This document shows positions 106-45,653 of a stretch of DNA of 64,000 bases, in pieces. The DNA comes from Curvularia clavata (Eukaryota): contig CP089277.1 in assembly GCA_023920165.1 (NCBI GenBank), positions 2,542,001 to 2,606,000 on the forward strand. Reading direction: 5' to 3'. Position 1 is the stretch's first letter, and each line of letters begins with the position of its first letter. Made by a program: the position numbers and the translations under genes. The notes beneath the pieces were generated by a model. That model had not been told where the DNA came from. It ran no database searches and saw only the letters and a list, made by a program, of their open reading frames with translations.

Positions 106-3100
106 TTAAAAGCCATACTGTCGTCTAACCGTACCACGTGGCCTGCGCCCAGAGCCAGGACCAATGTCTATGCTCTGAAGCTCAAGACTGAGCGCCATGT
201 CTTCATTCTGGGAGCCGTAGCTGCCTCCGCCCATGTCAATGGGGACTTTGGCAGGGATCGGGGGTGCAGCGATGCTGTGTCGCTGTGTACCATGACGGTC
301 ATAGCCGAGACTGCCGTAGGTGTTGGGGTTCTCGCGCTCACGTAGAACTTGCCTGTCGGGCAGGTTGAACTGGAGCGGGGACGAATCGTAGGAGGAAACG
401 GGTCGTGCCTGCTGATCACGCTTCTGCAACCTGTTGCGTCCAGTCGAGATGGGTTGTGGGGCGTGTTGGCTTGCAAGGACCAGTGCGCCGGCATTCACGG
501 GCGAGTTGTAGTCGTTAAAATCGTGCCGCGCAGGAACAAGTGCGGTGCTATTGTCAAAGTTCATGCTTGCTGCATGGCGGAGACGTTCTCGTTCGGCGCG
601 ATCACGTTGGTATCTCTCCTCACGCTGCATCGCAGCCTCAAGGTCACGGCTTCCATTGGGTTGCGTTCGCGTGCGAGGCGCCTTTTCCTTCACAGTGCCC
701 TTGGGCACAGGCTCGGGTGCCCAGTTGTCGACAGGTAAGTGGTCTGAGGCATCAACAACCCGGCCGTTGAATGTGACGATCTGACCCTTGTCATTGTACT
801 CCATGCGACTACCTGGACGCTCCTGCTCATCATCTGAAGGAATTGGTGACTTGGATACCCTAGGGTTGTAGACGTCGAAGCTGTCGGGGTTAAATGCTAT
901 TCCGGACAATCGACGTTCGCCAAAATCTTCTCCTGGTGGTGGCGGACGAGGCGATACTGACTTGCGCGTCGGCATGCTACGTGCCGGCATCCTAGAAGAG
1001 CGATCAGTGACTGGATTTGGAGAGTGACGATCCATATCCGGGTGGGGAGAATAGCGATCCATATCAGGATTCGGGGAGTAACGATCCGGGGTTGGGTTTG
1101 GGGAGTAACGATCAGGAGCTGGGTTTGGCGAGTATCGCGGGTTCACACCAGGACTTGTAGCACGGGGCTTAATAAGTGGAGTAGGATCATATACAGGAGG
1201 AGACCTCTGTCGGGGCTGCTCTGGGGGATCGTGAGGGTAGTAATCATTCATCTGGTATGCTGAATGATGGACCAGTTCCTGTGACTGCACAGGAGTTTCG
1301 AACTGAGTGATAGCTCGATACTCGGCAGGCTCAGAGTAGTGACGGAGCCTTGGCGCAGTGTCATAAGATGGAGGCGCCTCATATGGTGGAGTCTCAATCT
1401 CTTGTCTGGCGGGATTGAGTCCAGCAATGAGGCTAGACGGCAAGGCTGGCATTTCTTGTCTCACAGGCTCTGGTCGGGGAGGCTCCTGGTGAAGAGGCTC
1501 CTGATGCAGAGGCTCCTGTCGCAGGGGAGAGGGTACCATGGCGTCACGGGACACTGGACGGCTTGGTGACTGTGTTGGCATACGAGGATGCGTGTACCGG
1601 CGCTCAGAAGGCTGTCTAGGCGCATAATCAGTAGGCTCATACTCTTGGGGTACTGCACCAAAGCTCCTCCGATGAGAATCCTCTTGAGATCGCGGTGCAA
1701 AGTTCAGTGGTGCCGGAGTATCATCCTGGTACATTTCATGACTTTCTTGATTGGGATGAGGCAGTGTACTCGCGTTGCGTTTGTGCATGGGTGGTGGCGG
1801 TGGCATATCATCCTCGTCCTCAACCATGGGCTGCATGGCACTACGCCTTCGGTGAGTAGGACTCTCCTCCTGTGGTGGGGGAGCTTCGATGAATCTTTGA
1901 CCATAGTACGGGTTTTGTGGAGATGCTTGTTCCTGGCTGTATCCGCGATTGCGGCTGCTCCGTAAAGGCGCAACTTGGTAGGCGGGGTCTTGGTACTGCT
2001 CGTGGGCATGAGACGGGGGAGGTTGCTGTGTCGGCTCGATCCTTGCAGGTTGAGGCTGCGGCTGTGGTTGCTGCTGATGCTGCAACAACTGCTGCTGCAG
2101 GTACTCGATTTGTTTTTGTTGGTTCTGAATCTGCTGCTCATGCGCAGAGGGTTCGTAGCTATGCTGAGTTGGCACTGCTGGAGCCGAGTGCGAGTGGACT
2201 GGCTCAGCCGGGTGTTGGGGCGGCTGCTGGTAACTACGGGGAGACCTACTGTCTTCTTGTGACATCCTCCTTGGTTCTGCATGGCGTACATGCTGTGGCA
2301 GAGGGTCGATCGGCTTCACTTCGTACGGTTTGGGCGCTGCGTACGACATGTCAAAGTTTTCGTCTCTTGGTGCGGGTATCCTCTGATTGGATAATCGCGG
2401 ATTGGGTGGTGTGCTGTAGGCAGACTGGGGTGGAGGGCGTTGGGGCGTGTTCTGAATCGATATCGATGCAGGATGTAGTGGCGATGAGTCTGGCACGGGC
2501 CTGCGGTTGGATGTGTCCGCCTGGCTTCGATGAGAGGGCGGTGTTTCCTTTGGCGTTTGTTGATGTCGCGGTGACCCCAATTCACGAGGCCCGGCACGCA
2601 TGCCACGCAATCCCCGGTGTTCTGGTGTATGGACAGGTGACGGTGTCGCGCCTGTCGGGTCACTGGGCAGCGGTCGTCGCTTGACTGGTGCCATCTCTCG
2701 CGCTCCACCAACAGTAGCCTTTCCCTCTGGCCTGGTTGAAATCCTCTTCTTCTCCGGCACTAGATTGTCTGCCTTGGGACGGGTGTCGTAGAAGGTTATT
2801 TCCATGCGGAGCTCGCCAGCGTATTTTCCTTTACAATTCAGGCCTAACCACTCATCGCTCTGTCCTCCGCCAGGCGTAATGACAGATTGAAGGTTTGCCC
2901 ATGCCTCTCCAATGAGTTCTGTCTTTTTATCATCATTGAACACTGAGACCTTTAGGCGGTTGTAATCGGGCGAATCGTGTACTGTGAAGCGTAGTTCTTG
3001 GTCCCTGCATACGTCAGAAGTTGGGCTCCAAAGTAGTGGGCTTCACACTCACCATCTTGGTGTCTGGCCTCCACGCTTGTCTGTCCGAGTCTTCTTGGCC

Positions 3101-3288
3101 TCTTTACCTAGACGGGCAGCGCAGTAGGGGTCCTGTTTGCCCATTGTGCGCTTGTTGGGCAGGTTCCTGGCGCGGTCCATAATGACCACCAGGGTGCCTA
3201 TGACGGGCCCGTCGACCGTCATGTCGGAGAAGATGCCAGCAGCGTGGGCGCCGCCAAAAGCGGGAGTATGGGCCGACTTGCTCGCCAT
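106..3288 (-). CDS. C2-domain cytokinesis ingression protein (Inn1/Fic1-like); exons 3288-3053, 3004-106
   Basis: N-terminal C2 domain (GTLVVIMDRARNLPN..KQDPYCAARLGKEAKKTRTDKRGGQTPRW|DQELRFTV..LKVSVFNDDKKTELIGEAW) is joined across a 48-nt GTGAGT..CAG intron (3052-3005). It is followed by a long Pro/Gln-rich tail with PxxP motifs (PPIPAKVP), the Inn1/Fic1 architecture. Confidence 0.85.
1011..1143 (-). repeat. Coding tandem repeat of 8-9 aa units (RYSPNP-x-x-D-like), 5 copies
   Basis: Translation reads PRYSPNPAPDRYSPNPTPDRYSPNPDMDRYSPHPDMDRHSPNP; units of about 27 nt are visible in the DNA. Confidence 0.85.
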
Positions 3289-4562
3289 ACTGAGGACGGC
3301 GATGGGGTTGTACCTATGTGGTGTTGCGGAAGGAGGGGAAGCGCGTCGAGCGGAAGTGGGAGCAACGAAGGGTGGAGCCGCCGGGGCAGCGTAGTGGGAC
3401 AGTGGTAGCGAGCATGCGCAGCAATTGCGGGCAGGCCGAGTAAGGTAGAGGAGAAAACAGCAAAGGAGCGGGCGAGGAGTTTGTGCAAGTGCGGTTGCGG
3501 GTGCAAAAGCAAAAGAGTGACGGTGTGCAGAGGCAGACGAGACGGGTAGGGCAGAACTGGTGTTGTTCTAATCGCAGTTACGCACCCTGTGGCTGGGAGC
3601 ATCCAGCCTCTCTCAGCTCCGCTAGGGCTTAGCCCCGAGCTCTCCACGCCAATCACCGGGCCACCTGCTGAGCCTGCCACCCACTTTGTCGTCTTCCCCG
3701 TCAGATCACTAGGGGGTGTACCTTGCAGCTCGACATCAGGTTTCTTGTTTAGCCTTGTTTTGGCCTGCGAACGCCCTACCGCGCTATCGAAGTGGTTGTC
3801 TTGGGTGGTGCAAAATGCCGTGGCTGGTTCGCGCTTGTCCGTCGTACCGCATCTGCGCCCCTCTTCACAGCACGCGACGTCGAATATAGAACACCGGACA
3901 GATAGCGGTGCCGGCATACAATGGATCCGTTCCGGTGAGCGTGCAGATGGACGTGTGTAGGATGCAGCGCTGGGTCGTGGTTACGCACTCCATGGCACTT
4001 CGCCTCACTGCCCCCCTGCCCGGCGGAATCCCTTGCCGCCAACAAATCCAACTATTTGTATATCCCATGCCTAGAAGCGGCCTTGGTCACATTTGGCCGT
4101 CTCGAATCCGGCCGCGCCTAGTCGAGGCCATTGTCTTTTTCGAGGTCACGATGCGGCTCGTTTCTATGGGGACACGGCCAAACTCAGGGATAGGTTGATC
4201 TCCCGTCGCCAATCGTGCTATGAGATCACTCCACTCCTCGGTACATGCTGAAGACGCCATCCCACGAGATGGCTGGGACTGTCGCGATGCAGCCGCATGC
4301 TCATTGCCGAAACGCCGATTCGTTCCATGTGAGCTAACAGGTTAATTGGTTACTTCACATGCTACACGATCGCTGCAGCAGGCGGCTCGGACATGTCGGC
4401 GACCTCTGAGCGCGATCCAGTTAGTTGTGTTGGGACTCAGCAATTTCTGTATGTAGCGACGTGCCGTGGTTGTTATTGTGAGGTTTGTTTGTTTTGGCGC
4501 GCTTATCACAAGCCACAGACAGTATCGTGCCGCAGCCGGCATAGCGCCGCTGTTCCCGTGAC

Positions 4563-4630
4563 ACCGCGCACCCGCGTTACGCGATGTCCCTGCATCAATT
4601 AGGAACTTCGCCACTTGCGCCTCGCGTCGC
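4563..4630. promoter_or_regulatory. Cluster of CGCG cores (MCB/MBF-like) upstream of the 4700 gene
   Basis: CCGCGC, CCGCGT, ACGCGA and TCGCGT lie within about 65 bp, 70-135 bp upstream of ATG 4700. No perfect ACGCGT is present. Confidence 0.35.
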
Positions 4631-4699
4631 TGCACGGAACAGCCACATAACCCTACACCATCAGCCCAGGCGCTTTCGTTTTCCAATGTCGCCATCAAG

Positions 4700-5896
4700 A
4701 TGCCGACACATACGCCCTCTCCACACCGTTTCCTGGCTCCAACCCCGCATTCGGCACAGAAGTCGACCAGACCTCACTCGAGTTTGCGCAATCCTCCTGC
4801 ACTCGCGTCTCCCGCGTCGGCAAATGCACCAACACCCATCGCCACACCAGGATTGCAGTTGAAAAGATTAACACCCGCAAAACGCTTTGTCGTTACACCG
4901 CTACAAAAGCACGTTGTCCCGGAAGCCGCAAAGGTCGAAGAAGCAGATGCCAAGACACGTGCTGGTGATGCACAGGCAGAGCACACGCCGCTATCAAGGC
5001 CACGCAGGAAGCTCCAACGCATCGAAAGTATCGAGGAACCATCCCAATCAAGCCTGCCGGATGAGAATGACGAGATCCATGTCTCTGGCGTCATACCCTT
5101 CACCGAAGACCAGGATACGCTGTTTGACGAGCAAGATGAAGGAAATGAGGATGACGAAATGCTCTTTGAATCAACCGCACGTAGCAAGCGCCGGCGCATG
5201 TCACCACCAAGCTCTCCCTTTTTGCAGTCACCCGAGCCATCTACACCCCTTCCTGTGAACAATTCAACAAACCATCGTTTCAAGGTAGCGCCGCCCCGCA
5301 CCCCTGCACCCTTTCCCAGCATTTCCTCTGTCACGGCCAAAACATCAACACCTGCGCATCGTCCGCATTTCATTCTCCCCACACATCCAACTTCTCCTCC
5401 CAAGACTTCAAGACCTCCACCGGAAATTTTTTCTCCCTCACGCAAACATGCAAAATACCTCCCTGGTGGTCTTGCTTCTACCGTTTCCAACTGGATTATC
5501 GAGACAGCCAGTACGGGGTTTGCGGCACAGGAAAGGACTAGTGGGCCAGCTGGAGGTCGCGAAACGGATCACGGTGTGAAGATACAGTTGAAGATTACTT
5601 GTCTGTCTCGGGGCGGCGCCCATGAGCGCAATGCACAGGAGCTAGAGTGCTATGCCGGTGGGATGTTGTTCGCGAAGAGCGAGATACAGCCAGCCATGCA
5701 TGATGTCTCGGGGGCCTCTAGTTTCGCTAATCCAAACAACGACAAGAACGTTCTCTTAGCTGGTCAAGGTGGCTCGAGAGGCTCGAGAGGCGTCAGAGTC
5801 AAGGTTGGTACCGTAATCGGTGTACGTGCACCGACATGGGAGATTGATGTCGGTAAAGAGAAATGGCTGGTAGCCGTGGACTGGGTGATTCTCTGA
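4700..5896 (+). CDS. Hypothetical protein, 398 aa: disordered S/T/P-rich N-terminus and a predicted beta-rich (OB-fold-like, SPIDR/DUF4502-like) C-terminus
   Basis: Single-exon ORF with coding-like composition. C-terminal motifs are KYLPGGLASTVSNW, GVKIQLKITCL, KNVLLAG and VGTVIGVRAPTWEIDV. Confidence 0.8.
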   Translation: MPTHTPSPHRFLAPTPHSAQKSTRPHSSLRNPPALASPASANAPTPIATPGLQLKRLTPAKRFVVTPLQKHVVPEAAKVEEADAKTRAGDAQAEHTPLSRPRRKLQRIESIEEPSQSSLPDENDEIHVSGVIPFTEDQDTLFDEQDEGNEDDEMLFESTARSKRRRMSPPSSPFLQSPEPSTPLPVNNSTNHRFKVAPPRTPAPFPSISSVTAKTSTPAHRPHFILPTHPTSPPKTSRPPPEIFSPSRKHAKYLPGGLASTVSNWIIETASTGFAAQERTSGPAGGRETDHGVKIQLKITCLSRGGAHERNAQELECYAGGMLFAKSEIQPAMHDVSGASSFANPNNDKNVLLAGQGGSRGSRGVRVKVGTVIGVRAPTWEIDVGKEKWLVAVDWVIL

Positions 5897-6765
5897 TTTT
5901 GCGCTATCTTAATAGCGCGACATTTGATGAAGATATGAGATATGAGTGACGATTTATGAATGTTAAAAGGCCTGGAGATTGACTGGAGCATCTATATGGG
6001 TAGGCCCTTTCTTAGAACTTAAGACTAATCGCGTACTGCATCTTTCTATCAGCATGTTCTTCTTCCTCCTTGCTTCCGTTAATCTGGCATGAATTAGGAC
6101 CACCGGTCGTTGTGTCAAGCAGTCATCACACCGCGGAGCATAGCAGAAAGCTCCGCAGTACCAAGTATTCACATTAGCCCCTTGTCGACTACTAAGCTCT
6201 GTATTTACACATGTCGGACACCTCGACTTTCTTCATCACTCTCACTGCCAATCCATGAATAGTAATAAATATATTATTGAGGAGGACCCAAATTGAGGTT
6301 GTGGCCTGCTGGCACCTTGAGTCGAGTTGTTCCCAGTTACACAAAGGGGCGTTAACCACAGTCGCTATCATTGCGAGCATGGTGGCAAGGATAAGACTAA
6401 TCAGCGCGAGATGGTCAGACTGAAAATCGAAGCATAAAACATAAGGAAAAAGTTGAGGTGCTGACAGTCACGTATCGTTTCCCATCCCGATGGTATTGGG
6501 TTCTGTTGTCAAATGATGACGTTTTTGTGAGAGAGCGTGGATGGGAAAACGAGTAATCACAGCCATGTACTGACCAACCACCTTTTCCTAGCGTCCAATA
6601 TGTTGAGCGCTCACATAAAAGTGAGGCTTACACGTATTTGTTGAGATTTATGCGAATCTCAAATGCCCATGGTGATGGAGACATTTGTAATACTCAGCCA
6701 GTCATGTAGCGAACCACAGTAGGCGCCAACCATGTCATAGGGATATTCAATGCTGGAACCAAAGG

Positions 6766-9056: not shown

Positions 9057-12000
9057 ATGCGCAAATTCGAAGAAGTCTCCATCTCGCCGTGGCAGAATCC
9101 ATATGGAACTTCTGCTCCCAACACCGGGAGGAACCTATATGCTGCCAGCATACCACAACAGCAGCCCATTTATCGACGTGTAGTTTCACCTCCAACACTT
9201 ACATATTCCCATGGAGCACACTTGATAGGTGAGAAGAATAACGACGACAGTCAAGCAGGTATGCTTGAAATATGTTGTTTGTGACCAGTAGACCAAGTTA
9301 ACAGCTATAGGTACAGGAGTTTCACCAACCGCAGCAGAGGCTTCGAATCCAGCATCTTCTGCCGCACCGGAGCCATCTCCAGAAGAACAACCCCCCACAT
9401 CGGATGCCACTGTAGAGGCGACTCCAGAAGTAACTGCACCTGAAAATCCTCCAGCACAGGAACCTGCTCCCCAAAGTAGCGAGGGGGACGTTGTAATAGA
9501 CACTGTGGCCAAGGATGTCCAAGATGAACCTCCAGGACCAGGTGGCAGTGAAGATGCTGGGCCAAGTGCAGAAGAAGCACTTCCAGTGGCTCCGCCGCCA
9601 CCTCCAACAGCACCAGTATCAGTGCCCCCTGTGGAAACCCCAGCCCCTCCACCGCCAGCACCAGCACCCGTGGATCCGGCGCCTGAGACAGCAGCAGTCC
9701 AGAGTAAGAAGAGTGGTGAGTCCGAGCAGGCCGCTCTAGAGCCCCCGAAATCTCCAACAATGAAGTTTGTTCACTTTACCTCTGACACCAAAGACCCAGA
9801 CGACTCGGAAGATAAGAAAAGGAGACCGTATGGGTTCAGTAGGGTAAAGGCAACTGCATTTGTTCGTCTAAAGAAACCAGCTTCCCCTCCCCCAGCACCA
9901 AAGAAAGAAGAGAAGAAGAAGGTTGTTGGCCCCGATGCCTTCGTCAGGAGACGGAGGAGGAGCTCACTTCTCTCATCTTCATCCGACAAGCCAAAGGTCA
10001 GCAAGGATGAAAAGTCGAAGAGTCGAAAGGGAAGCAAAGATCCCACCCCGCCATCGAGCGATGACGGGTCATATGCTGTGGCCGATGCTCCTTCCTCTGA
10101 GATTTCTGAGAGCGTCATCATTGAGGAGACAGCAGAAGATGTCGCGCGGTCCATTGTGAGTGATGCCACACCACCACCGCCTCCACCACCTCCTCCCCCA
10201 GTAGATGAGATTCCCCTCGAGACAGACCGAGCGGTCACCGAGGAAACTGCAGCAGAACCTAAGCAGTCGAACGAAGAGGAAAGTGCTCCCCCTCCGGTTG
10301 AAGAACCACCTGCCCCTGAAGAATCTGCTACCAAAAGTGAGCCAGCACCAGAAGCTCCTTCCGCAGAAGCTCAAGAACCTTTGCCGGAGGAACCCGCTGC
10401 CCCTGCACCGGATGCTGGTGAATCTGCACCTCCTGCTGAAGAACCAGAACCAGTATCAGCAGAACCTGTTGTTACTGAAGAGACTTCCGCACCAAGCGAG
10501 CCAGCGGCGGATGCTGCTGACAAGGAAGAAGCTCCTGTGACTGAACCATCAGCAGGCGCTGAGGAGCCACCAAGTGAGGAGGCTCAGGCACCTAGTGAAC
10601 CCGTGGCAGAGCCAGCTGCTGAGCCAGTAGAAGCTCCAGCTGCTGAGCCGACAGAGGCCTTAGTAGAAGCCCCAGCCGAGTCGGCACCAGAGCCTGTAGT
10701 GGAACCTGTAGTAGAGGCTGTAGTGGAGCCAGCATCAGAGCCAACACCTGAAGCTGCACCGGAGCCAGTGGAAGAATCAACACCTGAGCCGGCACCTGAG
10801 CCAGCATCTGAGCCAGCATCTGAGCCAACAGAAACGCCTGCACCAGATGCTTCACCAGAAGCCCCAGCCGAATCAGCACCAGAGCCTGCAGCGGAGCCAG
10901 TACCAGAGCCAACACCTGAAGCTGCACCGGAGCCAGCAGAAGAATCAACACCTGAACCAGCTCCTGAGCCAGCTGCTGAGCCGACAGAGACCTCAGCAGA
11001 AGCCCCAGCGGAGTCAACACCAGAGCCTGCAGCGGAACCCGCAGCAGAGGCTTTAGTAGAGCCAGTATCAGAGCCAACAGCCGAAGCTGTCTCGGAGCCA
11101 GCAGAAACGCCTGCATCAGATACTGCACCAGAAGCCCCTGCAGAGTCAACACCAGAGCCTACACCCGAACCTGCAGCAGAGGCTGTAAAGGAGTCGGCAC
11201 CCGAGCCAGTGTCGGAGCCAGCATCAGAGGCTGCACCTGAGGGTACTGCTGACGCTGCACCTGAGCTGACAGAGGAGCCAGCACCAGATGCTACAACTGA
11301 ACCGACGCCTGAGCCAGCAGCAGAGGCCTCACCCGAGCCAACTGTAGATGCTGCAACAGAGCCAATGGCGGAGGTTCTAGCAGACCCAGCACCGGAGCCA
11401 GTAGCTGAGATCACGGCCGAACCGGCAGAAGCGCCAACAGAAGAGCCTGCACCCGAGGCCGCACCCGAGGCTGTAGCAGAGTCCACACTCGAGCTTGCAG
11501 TAGAGAGTGCACGCGAACCAACAGTAGAAGCTGTCACAGAGCCTGAACCAGAGGCTACAGCAGACGCTGGAACAGAGGCGACGACTGAGCCCGCTCCAGA
11601 GACTGCCACGGAATCAACACCTGAACCAACACCTGAGCCTGTAGCCGAGGCTGTGACGGAGCCAGGACCTGAGCCAGCATCTGAACCTGTACAAGAGTCA
11701 ACAGCTGAGTCTGTAGAGGAGTCTGCACCAGAGGCCCCCAAAGAGGCAATATCTGAGCCTCCAGTAGAGGCTGTTGCAGAGCCAGTACCAGGTGCCCCGG
11801 AAGATGCGACACCTGAGCCTGCATCAGACCCTGCACTAGAAGACGCAGTAGATCCAACACCAGAGCCAGGATTGGAACCAGTCGAAGCTCCTCCAGCTAG
11901 GCCTGAAGCTGAGGTCGTCGAAGTATCAGCTGCACCAAAAGAAGCCCCCGAAGAGGAGGCAAAGCCGTCTGAGGACGCTGCCACTGTTCTTGAAGCAGAT

Positions 12001-15000
12001 CCGTCACCACCAACGCCTGAAGAGGCCGCTGTTATCGAGGAACAACCCGCAGCTGGGGATACGCCTGCCACTGAGGAGACGTCTGCTAATGAAGAAGTGA
12101 AAGCTGTCGAAGAGGTTTCTACTGTCGCTGCTGAAGAACCGCCGGCAGAGGAACCGTCACCGGCTGTGGAAGAGTCATCTGCTCTTCCCGAAAATGCAGC
12201 CGCCTCAGAGGAGATGCCAGTCGGTGAAGACCCTACAGTTGATACTCCAACCGCCGAAGAGGCACCTGCTAGTGAAGAGAGTCCTGTTACTGAAGAAGTT
12301 CACGCTACCGAGGAAGCTCCTATCACAGAGGAAGCTATTCCTAGTGATGAACCTTCTGCTACTGAAGAAGCTCCAGCTGCTTCAAAGGCTGAAGAAACTC
12401 CTGTTGCTCCTGCTGACTTAGAAGTTCCAGCTATCGAGGAGGCTCCCAAGGAAGAGACAGCCCCTCCAACCCTGACTGAAGAAGTCCCTGCTGCTGAAGC
12501 GGCCCCTGCAGCAGATGGCGAGGCTGCCATCGAGGACTACCAAGCGACAGACCAGGAAAGCCCCGATCCCGAGAAGCCCGTCGCCGAGACCGAAAGTGAG
12601 GCAGCTCCTCCGGTCCAATCCTCGACTACAGAAAATGAAGCGGAAGTGGAGTTGGGATCTGACGAAATAAGCACAGCAGGTAAGCATGTCTCCGCCGTTG
12701 TGCGACAATCTTCACCGATAAACATAATAGACGTTGTCTTCGCATGCTAATATATGGTAGCTGAATCTCAACCTGCCGACCTTCCTTCACCTGTCGCACC
12801 TATCACAACACTCATCGACGAGGGTTCAAGTGAAGGCCCTCAAGCCGACGACACCATAGCTGCAGCAACTCATACTGATGGGGAGCCATCTGAGCATGCG
12901 GATGCCAACGAATCTGAGCAAGACACCTCCGACTGGGAAAAAGACGACGATGATTCATCACAGTTCGATGCGAATGAGACTGACGCATCTGAACATCACG
13001 ATGCTGATGCACCCAGTACTACTCGTAGCTCCGTTGAGCTCAATCACGATTATATGGAAAAGTTGGAATCACCACAGCCTGGTGAGACTGTGAATGTCTT
13101 TGAATTCCAGGAATTTACTACTACTTCCGTGGTTGAGGCTACAGAGGCGACCGTCACGAAAGAAACGATAGCTACGGACAAGACGCTCCCAGAGCCCGAG
13201 ATCGTCACGCCAGGAGGGTTGGATGACGAAAAAGAACCAAACGTCGCCAATGTTGACACGCTACCCGAGTCACCACAGACTGTTGTGAAGGAAGAGATTC
13301 CTGAGACGACTATTGGCGAGACGCTCGAACAAGAGGCGGCGAGCGAGGCACTGGACACCAATTGCGATGCGGCACAACCAGAGTCACGACCGGAATGTGG
13401 TACGGGTAGTGAAGCAGCGGGTGCACTAGACGATACACCTGTTCTGGACCCTGTTGTCGGTGAGGCGGAACCCACAAAAAGCAGTGAGGTCTCCGAGGAC
13501 AGCGGACAGGCCGTGGAGTCGGCTATGCCCGGTGACGTGGGAAACGTGGGCGAGACAACAGGTAAGTAGACGACGCACATTGATTGCTTTTCACATCTTT
13601 TATGTCGCGTGCATTTTGTCGATTGTCACTGTCACTGAAGGGCTTCGTCACACACGGCTCCGCGATAGCGCCCTGCATGCACCGAATCGGGCTAGCGCCT
13701 AGCATGTGGGAACTTGCCATTGGCTGCCCCAGAATTTTGCTTTGGCCCACAGTGCCAACACATTCTGCCATTTGTCGCACTTGGCTTATCGTCACGTGAA
13801 ACAAAGTCACCATCTCGAGTCGGGCTGCGATGCATGGTATATGCGATTCGCCGAGAGTCTAACCTGCGTGGTTTTGCTTTGCGCTAGCCCGTCCGGCTAT
13901 CTTTTGCGTCCCGACATCCCCGTCACGCTCCAAACCCATCGTCACCTTCTTTTTTGCCATCATCCTTCTTTCTCCCCACGCCGGCAACATTCTTGTTGCA
14001 CACAAGCCTGCTTGGGCGACACTGCCACTAACTCGACACAGTTGACACTGCGGTCAATTCGCCCCCAGCCGAAGACACTCCGGGCGAGTCATGCGCAATC
14101 ACCCCGGCTGACGCACCTAGTGAAGTGAGCCCAAATTCGGCCTCAGAGGAGGCTGGCGTAGAAGCACAAACTGAACAACACACCGTCCAAGAGCCCCTGA
14201 CTGAGGATACTCCTGAACAGCCAGCTGTTACTGCATCCTCTCTGGACCATATCGACCAAGATGTTATAACCGCGGATCCAACATTAGCAGAAAGCGAACA
14301 AAGCCCTGCTTCAGATATACCCGCCACCCAGGTGCCGGAAGCGGTAAGTTAAAAAAAAACGCTCTAAAATTTTGTTTTGCGATTCTGGGATCGTCACTAC
14401 ATATGCTTCTCAGAGGTCATGCTTATGAATCATAGGTTGCTGTCCACCAAGATTCTTTGGAGGTGTCTGATCACCCCGAAGCTGATATGAAGGCCAACGC
14501 AGAACCAAAACCACAAGAGCCGGAGTCAGAGGCGGGAAGCGAATCAGAGTCTGAAGACGACTGGTCAGCGTCCGAAGTTTCATCCTCACCTCCCGGCGAT
14601 GATGTGTCACAGGTTGATGGCGCACCCAGCTCTGAACCTGGACATAGTGCGATCGATGAACCTGAAGATGCACCCTTGGAACATGACGCTCCTGTAGTGG
14701 CCGACAAGCCTGAGGCATCGCTAGCAGCTGAAGATGAACATGATGTCGACGATAGCTTCGAAGTTTCAGGTTCTGAAGTGTCAGCATCAGCTGTGCAGGA
14801 AGAAGATGGATCCGCGATAGCTGAGGAGGCGAGCCAAGTTGAAGCCGAAGGAGACGACTCAATTGTCGACCCTCCTGCCGAGCCTCTACTAGCTGAAAAC
14901 ACCGACCCACGACTATCACTTGCATTATCCGCAGCAACATGTGAGATCGTACCCGGAAGTGAGGTTGCCCCGTCTGAGTCTGGACAAGGCTCTCAAGTCA

Positions 15001-18000
15001 GTCTCGACAGTGCGCCCAGCGACATCGCAGATGCTCCTGCCGAAGAAGACTCGATCGTGTCTTCAGAAGGCTCCGAGGACGCCCAGGAAGAAGCAGCTGT
15101 GGATGCGGACGTGCCCGAGCCCCAAGAGCCATCTGAGCCAGCGCAGGACGAGATTGACGATGAAGCTGAAGATGACGATTGGGATGGGTCATCTTCAGTT
15201 AGCGGCTCCGGGAGTGAGGACGAAGCTGAAGAAAGCGAAATGCAACTGGAAGCAGCAGCCGAAGCGCCCGCGGATGAGGCTGACGCAGCTGATGATGGAG
15301 AGGAAGAAGCTGATGCCGCTGTATCTGAAGCTCAGCCGGCCGAGCCGGCTGCTGATGCGGAATCTCTCGTGTCTGAGTCAGCAGAAAGCGCTTCGAGTGT
15401 GCATGAGCCTGAGACTCAGGAAGTTGATACGCCTGCACCGGCGGCACCTGAAGACGCCCCCGAAGAGGCCAGTCCTGATGGCGAGGAGAAACTTGAAGAG
15501 CAGGCAGAGGATGATGCTACTGGGCATGAAGATGCCGAACCTGCTCCGATCGACGAACCAGAGGCAATCGAGCCTGCACCTCCTGCCGATGCAGACATTA
15601 TAGAACCACTTCCGGCCGACGATGCACCAGCTGACGAGCTAGAGCCTGAATCCGAAGAGAGTGAAGTATCGGTAGAGGATGATGATGAACCAGAGGGTGA
15701 AGCAGATGACATGCCTCCAGAAGATGCTCCAGCCGCAGAGGAGGTGGTAGCAGCAGCAGCAGCAGCAGCAGAAGAAGAAGATGAAGTTTCAGAGGCACCT
15801 TCTGAGCCCGCTCCAGAGGAGGTTGTTGCTGAAGAACAGGCACCTCCAGTTGGAGAAGCTTCCCCGGAGCCAGAACCAGAGTCCGAGCCTGAACCTGAAC
15901 CAGAGCCCGCCGAAATTTCTCCGGAAGCACAGCCTGAAGAAGAATCTCCGCCAGCTTCTGAAGCCGATGCTGAAGAACCACAGCCAGTTGTCGAAGATGC
16001 GACGGAAGAGGCTGTCGAGCCTGAGCCGGTCCCCGAAGAGGAACCTGAAGCTGCACCTGCATCCGAGGCTGCGCTTGCACCCGAGGAACTTCCTGTAGAA
16101 GAAGCTGCACCTGTTGAATCAGAGGCAGAACAGGAGCCAGAACCAGAAGCCGAGCCAACACCAGAACCTGAAGCTGAGCCTGAGCCTCAGCCTGAGCCAG
16201 AACCACCAGCGGAGCCAGAGCCGGAACCTGAGCCAATCGTGGAACCCGAACCCGAACCAGTAGTCGAACCAGAGCCAGTGACTGTGACAGAAACAGAGGC
16301 AGAGCCAGAGCCTGTAGCAGAGCCAGAGCCTGTAGCAGAGCCAGAGCCTGTAGCAGAGCCAGAGCCAGAGCCAGAACCAGTCGTCAATGCGGACGTAGAG
16401 GTACCAGTAGAAGAACCCCAGGCTGAACCGGCAGAATTGGAAGACGAGGCAGCCGACGGAGGAGTTGCGGTTGGTTTCATGCCTGCGCAAAGGTCACTCG
16501 ACTTTGTCGAAAGTCCAACCAGACCCCCGCCACCGATTCCCGTTGATGATCACAGAGACCGCGACTTCGCAATCGACGATGAGCTTGCAGCTGAACCTCC
16601 TGCCCGAGAAAGGCCTCGTCGGAGGCATTCGCATGCTCACCGCGATGGCTATCATTATTCTAGTCGTAGACGTGAGAGCGATGCTAGTTACAGGGAGCGT
16701 CCGAGCATGGCTGTGCCAGACTCTTCTGGTATGCCAAAGACCAAGCGTCGTGATAGCATGAACGAACGTGAAGCCGCCGAGCGAAGGAGAGAAAGGCTAC
16801 GTGAGGCCGAGAGAGCTGGCAGCAGCAGCGACCGAGAGAAAGCTTATCCCGAGTATCCATCGCGCCGCCGCGACAGCAGGAGCGACGAGAGACACCCTAA
16901 ACGCCGCCCTGTTGACGAAAGGGAAGACGAGATCGAAAGACAAAGGCGAAGAGAGGCTCGAAGAGCTGAAAAAGAGCGACTTGCTGCCGCAGATGCTGCT
17001 AGGCTCAAAGCCGAAGAGGAGGCTAGAAAACTGGAGCATCGTGAGCGACGTCGTGCAGCAAAGCGGGCAGAAGAGGAAGCAATCAGAGCTGCCGAGGATC
17101 GCCGCAGGCTCAAAGAAGAAAAGAGACAGGCGATTGAAGATGAGGAGAGACGGATTCGACACGAGAAAAGGCGACAGAGACATGAGGCCGAAAAAGAAGC
17201 CAAGCGTCTGGAAATGGAGAAGCTCGAAGAGGCTGCACGCGAAGAAGAGGAGGCCAGGAGACTTCGCAGACAGAAGAGGGCGGAGCGAGAAGCAGCCAAG
17301 TTAGCAGCTGCACAGCAAGACGACCTCATTGAGCCGCCACCTCGCGACACTGCTCGACGTGCTGCAGAGGATTATGAGGAGCCAGCGTCACCCCCTCCTC
17401 TACCACCGCTCGATGACGAGACCCCGCCTCGCAGCAACCCTCGGAGACGATTGAGCATCAGGGATACCCCAGGAAATGTGAAGCGCGGTATTTTTGGAGG
17501 TATTTTCGGTCGTTCGAAGCCAGAAGCCTCCCCGCCTGTGTCGAAACCTACCCGGTCAACCCGCGCGCGTGCGAACACGATCGACGGCCCCATTAAAGTC
17601 CCTCGAAGAGAATTTGAGCCAGAGAGTTCGCCAAGCAGGGATCTTTCTTCTAACAATGAAAGTCGCGACCGAGGCGACCGAGCACATCGTAGTCGACGTT
17701 ACTCACATCAACGTCGCCAGTTCGCATCTCCTGAGGAAGAAGCGGACTACTACAAGTGGAAAGAAGAGAGGCGTTACATGCGCCGTCCAGAGCACGAGAT
17801 GTCTGGTGGCAGGGATGGTGGAGTCTCTGTTCCGCAGCCAGTTGACGACCTTCCTCCACCACCACCGGTGCCTTTCGATTACGCGCTCGAGGACGAAGCA
17901 GTTGAGGACGCTGAATCACCTGTGATTGAAGATGCAGCTGCAGTTGTTGGCGTAGCCTCCTATTCCGACGAGGAGCGACGTGAGCGCCGACGCAGTCGCC

Positions 18001-18230
18001 GCATGTCCAAGCCTGAAGAACGCACCAAAACACGTCGAATCTCCTTTGCCGACAAGGAGCGACCTTCTGGTCGCCGCGTCGAGATCGAGCGTCCACGAGC
18101 TCGCGACCGTGGTGACGATCGCCCACGCCCCAAGAGAGGCGAGACTGAGCGCCGGGACAGACGAAAGAAGAAGGAAGAGTCTGGCGGCATCAAGGGTTTA
18201 TTCGGAGGTCTCAAGAAGAGAATCCACTGA
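9057..18230 (+). CDS. Giant intrinsically disordered Pro/Glu/Ala-rich protein (~2822 aa) with an Arg/Glu-rich charged C-terminal region; exons 9057-9258, 9311-12679, 12761-13561, 14042-14343, 14436-18230
   Basis: Five ORF-track segments join in frame through canonical GT..AG introns (GTATGC/TAG, GTAAGC/TAG, GTAAGT/CAG, GTAAGT/TAG). Summed exon length is 8469 nt = 2823 codons including the stop. Confidence 0.7.
10590..11900 (+). repeat. Degenerate coding repeat array (EP/AEP/PAPE units) with longer internal duplications
   Basis: GAGCCAACACCTGAAGCTGCACCGGAGCCAG occurs at about 10738 and 10906. GAGCCGACAGAG..AGAAGCCCCAGC occurs at about 10645 and 10978. GAAACGCCTGCA.CAGAT occurs at about 10831 and 11104. 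Confidence 0.85.
15750..15770 (+). repeat. (GCA)7 coding microsatellite (poly-Ala)
   Basis: gcagcagcagcagcagcagca is seen directly. Confidence 0.9.
16299..16379 (+). repeat. 18-nt coding minisatellite (GCAGAGCCAGAGCCTGTA)x3 plus GAGCCA units
   Basis: Three perfect copies at 16299-16352 encode AEPEPV repeats. Confidence 0.9.
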
Positions 18231-22855: not shown

Positions 22856-24838
22856 CTACTTGGCCAAAAATTTCTGAAACGCTTCCTGGTCAATCACAAC
22901 ATTTCCCACAGCCCGGAGCTTCTTCCTGCCCTCTTTCTGCTTTTCGAGCAGTTTGCGCCGCCTGCTGAGGTCGCTTGCATGTAGCTTGGCTAATACGTCC
23001 TTGCGGTAAGGCTTGATGGTAGCTCTGGCCACAATCCTTCTCCCTGCGGCTGCCTGTATGATGACCTCAAACATCTGCCGCTCGACGTGTTCCTTGAACT
23101 TCTCCACCCACGTGCGTCCCACCTTGTCAACTTGCGATGTGTGCAGGACGCGCGAAACGGCATCAACTGGGGAGCCGTTGACAAGTAGATTGAGTTTCGT
23201 AATCGATGACCGACGAAAACCGGCATCTTCGTAGTCCAGCGATGCATAACCCTTGGTGGAGCCTTTTAATTTGCCAAAGAAGTCATCTACCAGGTGCGAT
23301 AAGGGAATATCGTACTTGAGAATGACTTGCGAGGCTGTGAAGAAAGTGAGTTCCTTCTGCTCTCCGCGGTTGGCCTCGCAGAGCTTAATGACCTCACCAA
23401 GATACTCATCCGGCAGAGTGATGGTGGCAGACACGTAGGGCTCATGGACTTCCTGCACCTTGAAATGCACTTGGTCTTGATCCGGAAACTCATTGGGATT
23501 GGTGATGATGGACTCGGTGCCATCCCTCCATATCACCTTGAAAGGTACCGAAGGTGGCGTGATGATGATGTTCGCACCGTGCTCTTGACGAAGTCGGTCC
23601 TCGAACACAGAGCAATGCAGCGTTCCCAAGAATCCTAGGCGCCACCCAGCGCCCAACGCATCTGAAGATTCCTTCTGCAGAGTCACGCTGCGATCATTCA
23701 GAATAATCTGGTTGATGCTGTCTTCCAGATGCTCATGATTGTCCTGGTCAGTCGGGAAGGCAGAGACAAAGACCATGCTTTTGGGCTCCTCGAATCCAGG
23801 GTAAGGCTCAACCAGCTTCTCGGACCCAATGGTTGTGTAGGTATCGCCCACCTTGGCTTCCTGTGATCGCTTCATACCAGGGTTAAAGTAGATGTAGCCC
23901 ACCTGGCCTGCCCTCAAGACTGTCTGCGGCGTCTGATCGGGGTACATGATGCCGACCTCTCCCACAATGTACTTGAGCTTGGTCGCAAACGAGCGTATTG
24001 TGTCTCCAGGCCGCACCTGACCGTCGAAGATGCGCACAAGCAGAATGACTCCCTTGTACACATCATACCACGAGTCGACAAGGAGCATACGGAGAGGTTT
24101 GTTTGGGTCGCCTACCGGGGCAGGGATCTTGTCGACGACAGTTGGAAGGAGTGATGCTACGTTTAGTCCAGTCTTTGCGGAGACAAGCACAGCGTCCTCA
24201 GGGTCGAGCTCAAAAGTCTCATGCATCTGCTCAAGTACGCGTGGCGAGTCGGCATGAGGGAGATCGACCTTGTTCAGTACAGGGACCAGTGTCAGGCCCT
24301 GAGAGAAGGCAAGGTAGAAGTTCGCGACGGTCTGAGCCTGTACACCCTGGCTGGCATCTACCAGCAGCAATGCGCCTCCACAGCTGGCATAGCTCCGCGA
24401 CACCTCGGCACGAAAGTCGACGTGGCCAGGCGTGTCCACCAAATGCAGCAGATAGTCTTTGCCCTCGTGATTGTAGATCATGGTGCACGTTTGCGCCTTG
24501 ACTGTGATACCACGCTCCCTCTCTACATCGAGCTTGTCGAGGAATTGTTTCTGGCCACCGGGCTCAATGGTGCCTGTAAGCTCCAAGAGACGGTCCGACA
24601 AGGTCGACTTGCCATGATCGACGTGCGCCACAATGCAGAAGTTGCGGTAGCGGTCAATGGGGATGTCGGCGATGCGCTTCTCGAGCTCTCCCTGCGGGCG
24701 GAAGGCTTGGGCATACTTTCTGGCGGGGGTCCATAGGCGCTCAAGCAGGCGTGAGGTAGGTGGGAGAGCCCTGGAGCGAGCCAAGGGCGTCCGCCAGCCG
24801 TGCAGAAGGCTGCTTGCAGTTCGAACGCATGATCGCAT
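22856..24838 (-). CDS. GUF1: Mitochondrial translation factor GUF1 (LepA/EF4), ~660 aa
   Basis: GTPase motifs are [29 protein letters not shown] and NKVD. LepA C-terminus reads [19 protein letters not shown]. The Arg-rich N-terminus from MRSCVRT looks like a mitochondrial presequence. Confidence 0.97.
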
Positions 24839-24920
24839 GGGTGGGCATGAGATCAAATCAATGCGTGGCTGCTGGTCGTGTTGGATGGCTGTCGCAACTT
24901 TTCTTTGCTGGAAGTTGATC

Positions 24921-24962
24921 ATCTCATCTTATCTTATCAGTGGCATCTTATCTTATCTTATC
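24921..24962. promoter_or_regulatory. Two tandem (ATCTT)n blocks giving five GATAAG sites on the minus strand, in the GUF1/MAD2 divergent intergenic region
   Basis: atctcatcttatcttatc agtggc atcttatcttatcttatc. Confidence 0.5.
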
Positions 24963-35828: not shown

Positions 35829-38800
35829 ATGGCGTCCGCTAGTCGCCTTGAGCTTCCACATCAGCTTTACAACCATATCGCCTTGCCCCGCAATGTCCCC
35901 GGCGAAGAAGACCGAAATATTTCCCACATCGATGCTGACTTGCTGGAGCGCATGCTGGACGCAACCAGAATGCTCCGTCGCTACACTGCTGCTGAACTCC
36001 AGCCTTGTATGCTTGGGCTAATTGACACGCTAGAAGCATCTCAGAGGCTGAATGGGGCCATCAGCAAGCCCACGCTTGTTAAGATGTTTCGCAATTTGAA
36101 TTGCCACAATATGCTTGTACTCTATATCACCCCACAGAATTGCGGTCTACTTGTCTACCAAGACACTGGGTGAGTTTACTAGTCACTCATGTCACACTCT
36201 ATAATGCTAACTTTTACAGTCCTGCAGGTGAAATTTCTATCGTTTTCGAAGCTTTCGAGGCATCTGCAACTGCCGACAAGGTGCTCGCAGCAAAGGGTGC
36301 GCTGCAATGGGACTGTGAGTATTTTACATGCATAAAATGGGTGGGTGATAGATGCTGACAGTTCTCCTTACAGTTCCTGGATCGGCTGTGTCTATTCCCA
36401 GGTCCAAGTTCGAACAGAGCGCCTTCCAAGATGCGCTCGCGACCTTCCTCGAGCAGGCCAGCCGTGAAGCCGTCAGCAAATTCGCCGCCGTTACCTGGAA
36501 GGCAACTGCCAAGCTCCCTGAAATCCGAGACACGAGTGATCCGGCAATCATATGTGGCTTGCTGATGGCTATACTGGAAGCCAATGGCACTACAGCAGCT
36601 GTGCCTCGACTGAGAAAGCGAGTACGTGATACCGTCGTCTTTGACAACGCTCGGAAACCTTGGAGACGATCTCCTTTCTATCTGGTTCTAAGAGTGGCTG
36701 TACAGAGGTATCTGTATCGTCGGCTAGGTGCACAAATGGGTAGAAACGTGTACAAGGCCATCATGTGCACACTTCATGTACAGCTCTTAGAGACTGTTCT
36801 GAAGAGAATACCTCTCGAAGAAACTTTCTTCTTACGCCAGAAGCTGGGCCGCCGTCTCGCGAAGCTGAGCTCTGATCTCCACGGCTCTAACAAAGCGTCA
36901 CTTTTTGCTCAGCCATATGGTCAGCGGTCGTTTGAGGAAATGTTTGAGATGGCCCTATCGTCGACAGGTGGATATTTGAAGCAGGTCTGGCGAACACACA
37001 AACAATCACGCGAACGTGTTGTCCCGGCATTGCCCCAACACGCGCGTGATGACGATTTCAGGCTCCTGTTATGCAACAGCCGCAATATCTTGCGCAGGAT
37101 TGTGGATGAGTATTCTTTGTCCTCAAGACGCCAAGGACAAACCGCTGCCGAGCTCTTAAGTTCATATGAGCAGTCTTCGACTTCAACCAAACCGTACATG
37201 AAAGCTGTTTCTAGTCACATCTCTTCATCCCAGTACCATGAAGATTTTGTGTTGCCTGCGAAATGCTCAGTACGACCGGAAAGCGACCGCACCATCGAAC
37301 TCAGCAACATAATCTGTGAATATGTTAGCGTCATCGGCGCAGAAAATCAGCCATATGCATACCAGAAAAGTCAACAACTGCTCCACCTGATGGAATTGTG
37401 GGTCCTTATGGACGAGGCTGCCGTGACGTGCTACCCACTACTCCTGGATTACCATCCCGGCTTCGAATCCGATATACTAGATCCTGTTGAATTGCTGACA
37501 CTTGAGGAGATGACAAGAGCCCAAGATGTCCGCCGGTATCTCGCAGCTCGATATCGTCCTCGCAAGGCGACTAATAGTAGGACGATATTCGATGATCCTG
37601 CAGATGACTGCTTCGCTGTGCGCTTCTATGATAGCAGCGACCTTGATGGTAAGCTTTCAAAGATGCGCCAGGAGATCGAAGATAAAGCCGAAGAGTCACG
37701 GATGAAAAAAGAGGTGGAATGGCAGGAAAGGAGCGCAGAGTACGAACAAAAGACCCTTAAGTGGAACGAAAAGGAGTGCATATATGATCCTGTTTTCACT
37801 CGAGATCCTCGTGGCGCTGGCTCACGTCATAGGGTACCCTGTGAGTGGCACAATCTTCAAAACGAGCTGAAGAGCATGAAAATCCGGATCTTCGAACACC
37901 CCCTCCCAGGTTACGAGCCAGCTGCAAAAGCAGCAATCTTTGAACTTCAATGCCCAAAGGTATTTGCTGCATACCGCGACGCCACTTGGCTTATTCTCTC
38001 GAGCCTTTGTCATCAGCCAGTTGAGCAGCTTGACCGCGTATCGCTTATCCGTGAATATTCGCAGTTGCAACCCTATGCCAATAACGTACGCTGTCGGGTA
38101 ACACTGGGATCTTACAAGAAAGCTCATTTGGAATGCCACTATGCCACTTGGGGCTTTCCGATTCCGTTCGAGGAAATCATTCGCACTTGTGGTCTGAAGC
38201 CTAAATACTGCGATACTGCAGGTGTCTGTTGGACAGATCGGCCCGCCAAGGCTTCGCTTTGGCATCACTTTCCCGTGAAGCTCGAGTTGAACTCGCCATT
38301 TTTAGCCCTCGGGCTAGACTATGCTGCTTGGCCAACATCGAACGAGATCCTAGCAAGCCAAGCCAAGTGTCCGCAAGGTCTAGGCCAACATGAATTTACG
38401 GCTTTTCAAGGCCTTCTAGTCGGCACTCATTCAAGATGGATTGATCTGCTTCGAGAGCTGGGCTCAAACAACATCAACTTCTCTTCGCAGTCGACCTGGG
38501 CGATTGTGTCACGTCTGATGCTTCAGCAAGGACCCAGCCACAACCAAGATACTGAGTATTCCGATATCCATGGTGCGCTACTGGACAATGACCTTTGCAC
38601 TGCATTATTGAACCAAGGCAGCTACAGACTACTGAGTATTCAGCGCAACTGGAGGGAACCCATGCAGATGGAAACCTTGATTACAATCTTGCTCAAAGTC
38701 ACGTCCCTGACTAGAAGCACAGAGGTCCAACGACATGGGATGGAACTCCTTCACCAAGCTCGCCAGATAACTGATGCTTGGCGAAGAGAGCTCCAAGGCA

Positions 38801-44800: not shown

Positions 44801-45653
44801 GCCGTAAATACATGGTCAACCCTTCTATGAGATCAGGTCTCTGGGTTTCTGATCAGTTCAGCCGTACTGTTGAGACTTTGGAGTTGAACGATAATTACAT
44901 TCGGTCTCCTCATTGGATTCTCTGGAGCACTGTCAGCCAGCAAGCACTTCTGGTTAGTCCAGAGGAAGCGAATGAGCTGATTCCAATCGTACAACAATCA
45001 CAGCACTTTGAGGTAGGCAGCAAGATTCATCTTATCGTTTACGCCGCGCCAGTCACCCGCAGGATGCTGCATTTCAATCAACTCAACTTCTACGCCGTAC
45101 CATCGCTGCCGGCAGACTTCTGCGCTCCTGTTTGGCTGAGAGTAGAGTTGGGACTTTTCGCCGGACGCTTGTATCTTGAGTGGGACGAGTACCATGAGCT
45201 ACTGGGATACATTGGACTGAACGAGAACTTATCGCAAGACCCAGACAAGACTGCATTTGCAACGAAGCCACTGACTTTCCGTACGTATACCAAGCATTAT
45301 CTTTGTTAAAACTTTCGATTACTAACCAATAAATAACAGTGCACGACTGGATCACTCTCCGCCGCAAGGGACAAGACTTCGAGCACACGCCTATGGGTTT
45401 CATTACCACTGGCAAACCGCTCACGGAGAAGCACCCTTTCTTCCATACGCTCGCAAACGGAAACGATCCAGCTCTTGTTCAGAAGATTGCGCGACATGCT
45501 CCGGGCTATCCAGAAGAGCAAGAAGAAGATCAGCACGATGATGAAGATGACGAGGAGTTTGAACCTGCCCTTCAGCATATCGATGAGTCTGAAGACGAAG
45601 GTCCGGGATTCCAGTCTTGTGAGGAGGAAAGTTCTGTCGGGGATGATGAGTAA
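35829..45653 (+). CDS. Giant DUF6606/DUF3638/DUF3645-type protein with SF2 helicase-like P-loop motifs, ~3201 aa; exons 35829-36169, 36220-36314, 36374-42193, 42245-45280, 45340-45653
   Basis: N-terminal motifs are LYNHIALP, FEAFEAS, WDFPG and PWRRSPFYLVLRVA. Central motifs are DPLTGRTGTEEA and WLLLEID. Walker A-like QLQMGKGKTS, Walker B-like VLDECD, KRWNVQYG, AVPYLAKGVPSPTAEWGHPD, GFSGTND, LDESHCRGTDL and QAAMRLR follow. Exons sum to 9606 nt. Domain names are by recall. Confidence 0.85.

Follow-up and report, generated by a model that had tools for sequence, protein, structure and literature searches.

Do filamentous fungi have a counterpart of SPIDR, and is it encoded by an open reading frame of 398 codons in Curvularia clavata? 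SPIDR (KIAA0146), which carries the Pfam families DUF4502 (PF14950) and DUF4503 (PF14951), is a partner of the human Shu complex and is linked to disease, namely primary ovarian insufficiency. Wan et al. reportedly mapped its BLM and RAD51 regions in 2013, and to our knowledge no function has been assigned to its central domain. An initial annotation of the 64,000-nt stretch of DNA analyzed here (the window) had proposed that this ORF encodes a compact SPIDR relative with a single OB fold, of a kind not described in filamentous fungi. On the latter point our literature searches agree, as none of them brought up a SPIDR relative from fungi. Among the papers that they listed, no title or abstract concerned a non-animal SPIDR.

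In PMC11377751, SPIDR is described as having an N-terminal disordered region adjoining a central globular domain, for which an OB call was obtained only at E = 0.015, and a C-terminus made up of three ssDNA-binding, RPA1-like OB folds together with a zinc ribbon. Supplementary Data 2 of that paper aligns only the zinc-ribbon fold, OB3, and its SPIDR rows are all from vertebrates. Binding of SWS1–SWSAP1 and of RAD51 maps to residues 1–515 of SPIDR according to PMC6821187. Residues 1–515 comprise the tail and the central domain, the half of SPIDR that the fungal protein would match.

Gene model and probable expression

The coordinates of the gene and of the features of its product are collected in Table 1. 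The 398-codon ORF is enclosed in a stop-to-stop frame of 444 codons (4562..5896). A contig of 1610 nt from one public run (X1, depth 59) is colinear and gap-free across the whole transcript-like span and covers the entire ORF; another study (X5) contributes a contig that starts at 4642. The gap-free contigs are compatible with an unspliced (intron-less) mRNA, and the gene is probably expressed, the RNA type of the underlying runs being the tool's guess ("RNA?"). Given the intact frame, hundreds of full-length homologs, the conserved start and end, the confident fold and the transcript-like contig, the ORF is a real gene.

Table 1 Features of the gene and its product (positions are those of the window)
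Feature	Positions	Strand	Residues	Basis
Single-exon CDS (P0001), 398 aa plus TGA stop	4700..5896	+	1–398	ATG start; homologs align end to end
Transcript-like span, ~61 nt 5' of the ATG and ~351 nt 3' of the stop	4639..6247	+		Public-run contigs
Pro/Ser/Thr-rich N-terminal half, predicted disordered	4700..5449	+	1–250	pLDDT, composition, conserved short motifs
N-terminal motif MPTHTPSPHRFLAP, with S-P-x-R at S7	4700..4741	+	1–14	S/T-P at S7 in 60/69 rows with residues
Acidic motif ESIEE, followed by SQSS	5024..5038	+	109–113	ESI..SQ conserved; I111 invariant in alignment A1
Basic patch KRRR, followed by S168-P	5186..5197	+	163–166	At least three basic residues in 92/93 rows
Junction motif PPPEIFSPSRKHAKYLPGGLASTVSNW, with S245-P-x-R and GGLA	5414..5494	+	239–265	Alignment conservation
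Long α-helix N-terminal to the barrel (predicted)	5471..5536	+	258–279	DSSP on both models
OB-fold β-barrel (predicted)	5573..5893	+	292–398	Predicted models
Glycine-rich loop LAGQGG after strand 3	5756..5773	+	353–358	L353 100/103, G355 80/103 in alignment A3
PxW motif (P378-T-W380) on strand 4	5831..5839	+	378–380	Conservation in alignment A3

A fungal family with a constant order of motifs

A search of one database at E ≤ 0.001 returned 140 homologs, the best of which, from Bipolaris zeicola, is 66% identical (E = 1.8e-159), and 264 emerged when 1.84 billion representatives were scanned exhaustively. The alignments run from Met1 to the last residue. Members range in length from ~220 to 530 aa, and throughout this range the order of the motifs is constant. 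In the tail it begins with TPSPHRF and a second xRF, followed by the acidic ESI(E/D)xSQ, KRRR and two further RF/HF motifs; the later part contains the junction motif, LAGxG, VGIxxPxW and a final VDW.

Many of the named members belong to the Pleosporales. Other Dothideomycetes with members include Lophium, Glonium, Rhizodiscina, Aulographum, Viridothelium, Zalaria and Salinomyces, and the Xylariales (Sordariomycetes) are represented by Hypoxylon, Hypomontagnella, Astrocystis and a Xylariaceae species. In our searches the range of the family is thus limited to the Pezizomycotina, within which it comprises Dothideomycetes and Xylariales. Nearly all of the public records that we saw carry the label "hypothetical protein"; the names eIF4E and "altered inheritance of mitochondria", together with one F-box match, were taken to reflect mis-named or fused gene models.

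The homolog searches returned no forms intermediate between the fungal family and animal proteins. A profile search among proteins of 917–2615 aa recovered no SPIDR, its single hit being P0125, whose gene model is fused to an F-box protein, and a profile built from the short members (alignment A4) recovered, among proteins of 500–2000 aa, only the own-family variants P0003 and P0253; in each of these searches the ~8000 candidates with the most words in common were scored, and such absences are weak evidence. In a feature search of the ESM Atlas, unnamed ascomycete clusters at 0.93–0.94 are probably the family itself. Basidiomycete clusters at 0.83–0.84 in the same search lie under the lead threshold and were not counted.

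A disordered tail rich in proline-directed sites

In an AlphaFold2 model based on a 103-row alignment, the pLDDT block means of residues 1–250 range from 41 to 60. All 17 of the S/T-P sites of the protein are located in this part, which is 16.8% proline, and the disordered, SP/TP-rich N-terminus noted in the initial annotation is therefore confirmed in both respects. Four of the sites (S7, T58, S232 and S245) match the full S/T-P-x-K/R consensus. The KRRR patch is likely to be a nuclear localization signal. We considered whether the [HK]RF motifs that recur in the tail are RAD51-binding motifs of the FxxA type, an idea that was dropped because there is no consistent Ala at +3.

Near-invariant residues lie where the tail meets the folded region. 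Across the family the junction follows the consensus PLP[DE]xFSPxR+GxKYxPGGLAxxVxxW, and in alignment A3 the conserved positions include F244 (94/95), S245 (95/95), P246 (94/95), G257 (95/95), A259 (96/97) and W265 (98/98). At position 245, all but one of 95 rows retain an S/T-P (94/95).

A helix and a single OB barrel

The helix and the barrel are predicted with confidence, the best blocks having pLDDT values of 84–94 in the model from the 103-row alignment. A second AlphaFold2 model, of residues 216–398 and based on a different alignment of 52 rows, contains the same elements (mean pLDDT 75.8, pTM 0.57). OB-fold proteins dominate the rows listed by two exhaustive structure scans, with the N-terminal OB of MCM8/9 among the top rows. 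According to the models, the C-terminal ~110 residues clearly form a single OB fold, i.e., a small five-stranded closed β-barrel of OB topology, with strands at residues 295–303, 314–317, 322–329, 348–354, 365–368, 372–384 and 387–397. Two models and two scans thus bear out the earlier proposal of one OB fold behind a long disordered N-terminus.

The strings on which that proposal was based are all present in the translation: KYLPGGLASTVSNW (residues 252–265), GVKIQLKITCL (292–302), KNVLLAG (349–355) and VGTVIGVRAPTWEIDV (369–384). Two motifs singled out within them, GGLA and PxW, are indeed conserved among the fungal relatives and contain the best-conserved positions of the whole family, the former at the frequencies given above for G257 and A259 and the latter with P378 in 102 of 103 rows and W380 in 103 of 103 (rows with a residue, alignment A3). 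W380 is the sole fully invariant residue of the 103-row alignment.

Solved structures provide little to compare. Foldseek searches of the PDB with both models gave no match at E ≤ 0.001; the weaker rows were OB folds mixed with evident chance rows to bacterial toxin chains, and the latter were disregarded. By sequence, the protein matched no PDB chain at E ≤ 10, and three rows from a PDB search with the family profile (E 2.1–8.5) were judged to be chance. No solved SPIDR structure was present among the results of the PDB structure searches. Thus, the class of the predicted fold is clear, yet no solved family stands out.

Comparison with SPIDR

SPIDR and the fungal protein appear to have in common a long disordered N-terminus directly before a helix and a small β-barrel. 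They differ in size (~915 versus 398 aa), and the fungal protein ends right after its one barrel, whereas SPIDR continues into three RPA1-like OB folds and a zinc ribbon (PF14951). There is no detectable sequence-to-profile similarity between the two.

We compared predicted structures by searching the ESM Atlas, with TM-scores taken by query. With residues 236–398 as the query, the first three rows are unnamed ascomycete clusters and the fourth is a chordate cluster named "DNA repair-scaffolding protein", with a TM-score of 0.58. The alignment covers 135 residues of 236–398 and falls in the DUF4502 part of this cluster (913 aa, PF14950 and PF14951 in 100% of members). RecJ, the next row with a name, has a TM-score of 0.46 over 111 aligned residues, and the other OB rows score 0.34–0.38.

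The second query consisted of the C-terminal 129 residues of P0255, a relative from Salinomyces that is ~25% identical. Again the fourth row, after ascomycete clusters, is a chordate SPIDR cluster, aligned over 89 residues of the DUF4502 part with a TM-score of 0.52, a row that the service describes as one that "meets the bar for a name". It is followed by an arthropod cluster (TM-score 0.52, 105 residues aligned over 198–323), 10% of whose members have DUF4502. In both searches, therefore, the non-fungal rows start with SPIDR clusters in the order given by the service, the two queries being homologs and so not fully independent. In the second search the OB fold of RecJ reaches TM-scores of 0.54–0.55 against 0.52 for SPIDR. 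Because RecJ scores as high as SPIDR, much of the score reflects generic OB-fold likeness; moreover, these comparisons have predicted models on both sides, and TM-scores above 0.5 mean little for short stretches.

Profile searches do not extend the resemblance to sequence. An hmmscan of the 398-aa protein against Pfam at E ≤ 10, a threshold to be read with the fact that HMMER filters drop most matches above E ~0.1, returned no family. At the same threshold neither DUF4502 (PF14950) nor DUF4503 (PF14951) was matched in overlapping sets of 43, 103 and 52 relatives; in one of these sets, 25 of the 26 families with a single member are among the matches listed. The presence of DUF4502 in only 10% of the arthropod SPIDR-like cluster suggests that the Pfam model misses divergent relatives, in which case its silence weighs little. 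Overall, a structural resemblance to SPIDR models is present, and the proposed kinship is partly supported: the first non-fungal rows of the structure searches are SPIDR, while a profile match is lacking and RecJ scores as high in the second search. Homology to SPIDR may be inferred from the models; it is unproven.

Proposed role and alternatives

The explanation that we prefer, tentatively and at somewhat less than an even chance, is that the gene product is a nuclear adaptor, regulated by kinases, and the counterpart of SPIDR's N-terminal half. The disordered tail of ~250 residues would be regulated by proline-directed kinases and would contain a basic nuclear-localization patch and six to eight conserved motifs that recruit partners. 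The last ~140 residues, i.e., the helix and the single OB barrel, would dock partners in complex form, for which the Sws1/Rad51-paralog complex is a plausible candidate. Together, these parts would correspond to the disordered region of animal SPIDR and the central "inferred OB" domain inside DUF4502, and the fungal protein would serve recombination or replication-stress repair as a compact scaffold that resembles SPIDR but lacks the three RPA1-like DNA-binding OB folds.

Several features point in this direction. All of the S/T-P sites lie in the tail and the KRRR patch is nearly universal, from which we infer nuclear import and control by cell-cycle or stress kinases. The barrel is not basic, which makes docking on a protein partner more likely than coating of ssDNA. 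A role in recombination would follow from this reading. A more specific form of the proposal, in which the protein is core SPIDR itself, i.e., the missing fungal counterpart, is possible but doubtful. In that case the single barrel would dock the Sws1/Rad51-paralog (Shu-type) complex, and the phospho-regulated tail would bring Rad51 and a RecQ helicase.

The main rival to the SPIDR-like adaptor is an OB-fold adaptor specific to the Pezizomycotina that has no common ancestry with SPIDR, its likeness being that of any small barrel with a helix; we regard this as a serious possibility, ranking second. Such an adaptor could act, through its tail motifs and barrel, in another nuclear process, of which replication, telomere maintenance and transactions of RNA or chromatin are examples. 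The occurrence of members only in Dothideomycetes and Xylariales would be expected of it, as would the RecJ scores in the second Atlas search, whereas the place of SPIDR clusters as the first non-fungal rows in both searches and the clear margin of SPIDR in the first (0.58 over 135 residues against 0.46 over 111) would not. The lack of a DUF4502 or DUF4503 match in any hmmscan also agrees with separate ancestry, but it carries little weight if, as it appears, the DUF4502 model misses most members of the arthropod cluster. A disordered tail immediately before the domain, which the fungal protein shares with SPIDR as described in PMC11377751, also speaks against this rival.

We next in rank place an SSB/PriB-type ssDNA binder, which we consider improbable. 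Here the barrel itself, perhaps in oligomeric form, would bind ssDNA, and factors of repair or replication would be recruited by the tail, in the manner of the C-terminal tails of bacterial SSBs. The OB folds of bacterial PriB and SSB share ~7–12% sequence identity with the fungal barrel, and their scores lie in the range of a "common arrangement". Unlike the fungal protein, PriB and SSB are basic ssDNA binders without an N-terminal disordered half; most of the fungal relatives have a neutral or acidic barrel, with a median net charge of −2 and a positive value in 16 of 97 rows. Most of the conserved residues are Gly, Pro or Trp, and not those of a basic or aromatic binding face. A two-copy prediction of the C-terminal region scored 0.01 against a mark of 0.32, which is uninformative either way. 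Least of all, and with negligible probability, could the ORF be a chance frame or a pseudogene with no functional gene, a reading contradicted by the intactness of all 398 codons, by hundreds of full-length homologs in which both ends are conserved, and by the confident fold and transcript-like contig.

Other proteins with OB folds were also compared. HROB (C17orf53), SHLD2 and SPATA22 are grouped with SPIDR on the basis of their layout of a disordered region plus OB folds in PMC11377751, and they resemble the fungal protein in having a disordered N-terminal portion and one or more C-terminal OB folds. No Pfam match to them was obtained from the fungal protein at E ≤ 10, and the top rows of the structure scans contain none of them. 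Their OB folds are ssDNA-binding; the fungal barrel, by contrast, is not basic. The protein-docking OB folds of RPA70N, TPP1, Ten1/Stn1 and Teb1 have no sequence relation to the fungal protein and occur in different architectures, and none of them ranks above other OB folds.

Implications of a fungal SPIDR-like adaptor

If the SPIDR-like adaptor reading is correct, the fungal tail and its one domain would offer the least understood half of SPIDR on its own, in organisms in which knockouts and epistasis analysis, with sws1, rad51 paralogs and recQ as partners, are easy. The Shu complexes of filamentous fungi would then have a scaffold subunit that the budding and fission yeast models lack. Should the protein be core SPIDR, the scaffold would predate the split between fungi and animals, and the three RPA1-like OB folds would be either an addition on the animal side or a loss in fungi; there would also be a simple and genetically tractable model for the central domain of human SPIDR, so far unexplained. 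If the likeness to SPIDR turns out to be only generic, the family would still be a widespread and unannotated OB-fold family of nuclear type.

Genomic neighborhood

No recombination genes were found among the ORFs of the 64,000-nt window that have family matches. The matches include transporters, a LepA-type GTPase, a family-2 glycosyltransferase, an aldehyde dehydrogenase, a giant DUF6606/DUF3638/DUF3645 protein, an NmrA-like protein and a short-chain dehydrogenase. Upstream of the gene, the ORFs on the minus strand have a C2-domain match alone.

Repeated motif in the disordered tail

In the disordered N-terminal half of P0001, the 398-aa product of the single-exon ORF at 4700..5896 (+), a short basic-aromatic motif recurs four times at intervals, and its positions are conserved across classes in alignments of the fungal family. 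The motif has the look of a recurring docking site for a partner. A reading of these copies as FxxA, the RAD51-binding motif, gave no consistent fit.

Motif copies in P0001 and very long open frames elsewhere in the window
Feature	Window position	Strand	Extent
Basic-aromatic motif, PSPHRF	4715-4732	+	residues 6-11
Basic-aromatic motif, PAKRF	4874-4888	+	residues 59-63
Basic-aromatic motif, HRF	5273-5281	+	residues 192-194
Basic-aromatic motif, RPHF	5360-5371	+	residues 221-224
Very long open frame	106-3042	-	978 codons, stop to stop
Very long open frame	9292-12750	+	1152 codons, stop to stop
Very long open frame	14436-18230	+	1264 codons, stop to stop

Gene models and leader

Some public gene models of the family appear fused or mis-named: an F-box domain is present in P0125, a Massarina eburnea record of 1001 aa, the label 'eukaryotic translation initiation factor 4E' is attached to P0017, and UniRef calls P0029 'altered inheritance of mitochondria'. 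Other family members should not inherit the names of these records.

An out-of-frame ATG (4686-4688, +) lies 14 nt 5' of the P0001 start codon, within the transcript-like span, which begins near 4639-4642; it shares its reading frame with a 92-aa ORF at 4584..4862. Because position -3 is A at the main ATG and C at the upstream one, initiation at the P0001 start may involve leaky scanning, or a small uORF that overlaps the coding sequence.

Surrounding sequence

Just downstream of the P0001 gene region lies the interval 6397-6465. A single 60-nt contig of X3, one of the public sequencing runs, connects 6396 with 6466 and leaves out these 69 nt, which are present in another contig. The interval starts with CT and finishes with AC on the plus strand, equivalent to GT..AG on the minus strand, and has the appearance of a short intron in a transcript that converges from the minus strand. 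This splice-like gap is a weak hint that these public runs are RNA.

Elsewhere, an open frame of 2985 codons at 36352-45309 (+) encodes a giant protein with Pfam matches to DUF6606 (E 8e-47), DUF3638 (E 2.1e-81) and DUF3645 (E 2.4e-15). The three tabulated frames had no Pfam match at thresholds of 1e-3 and 1e-5. A C2 domain closes the minus-strand frame just upstream of the first of them (3049-3567), so a single gene may span 106-3567. An ordinary LepA/GUF1-type translational GTPase, with GTP_EFTU, EFG_C and LepA_C matches, is located at 22856-24928 (-).
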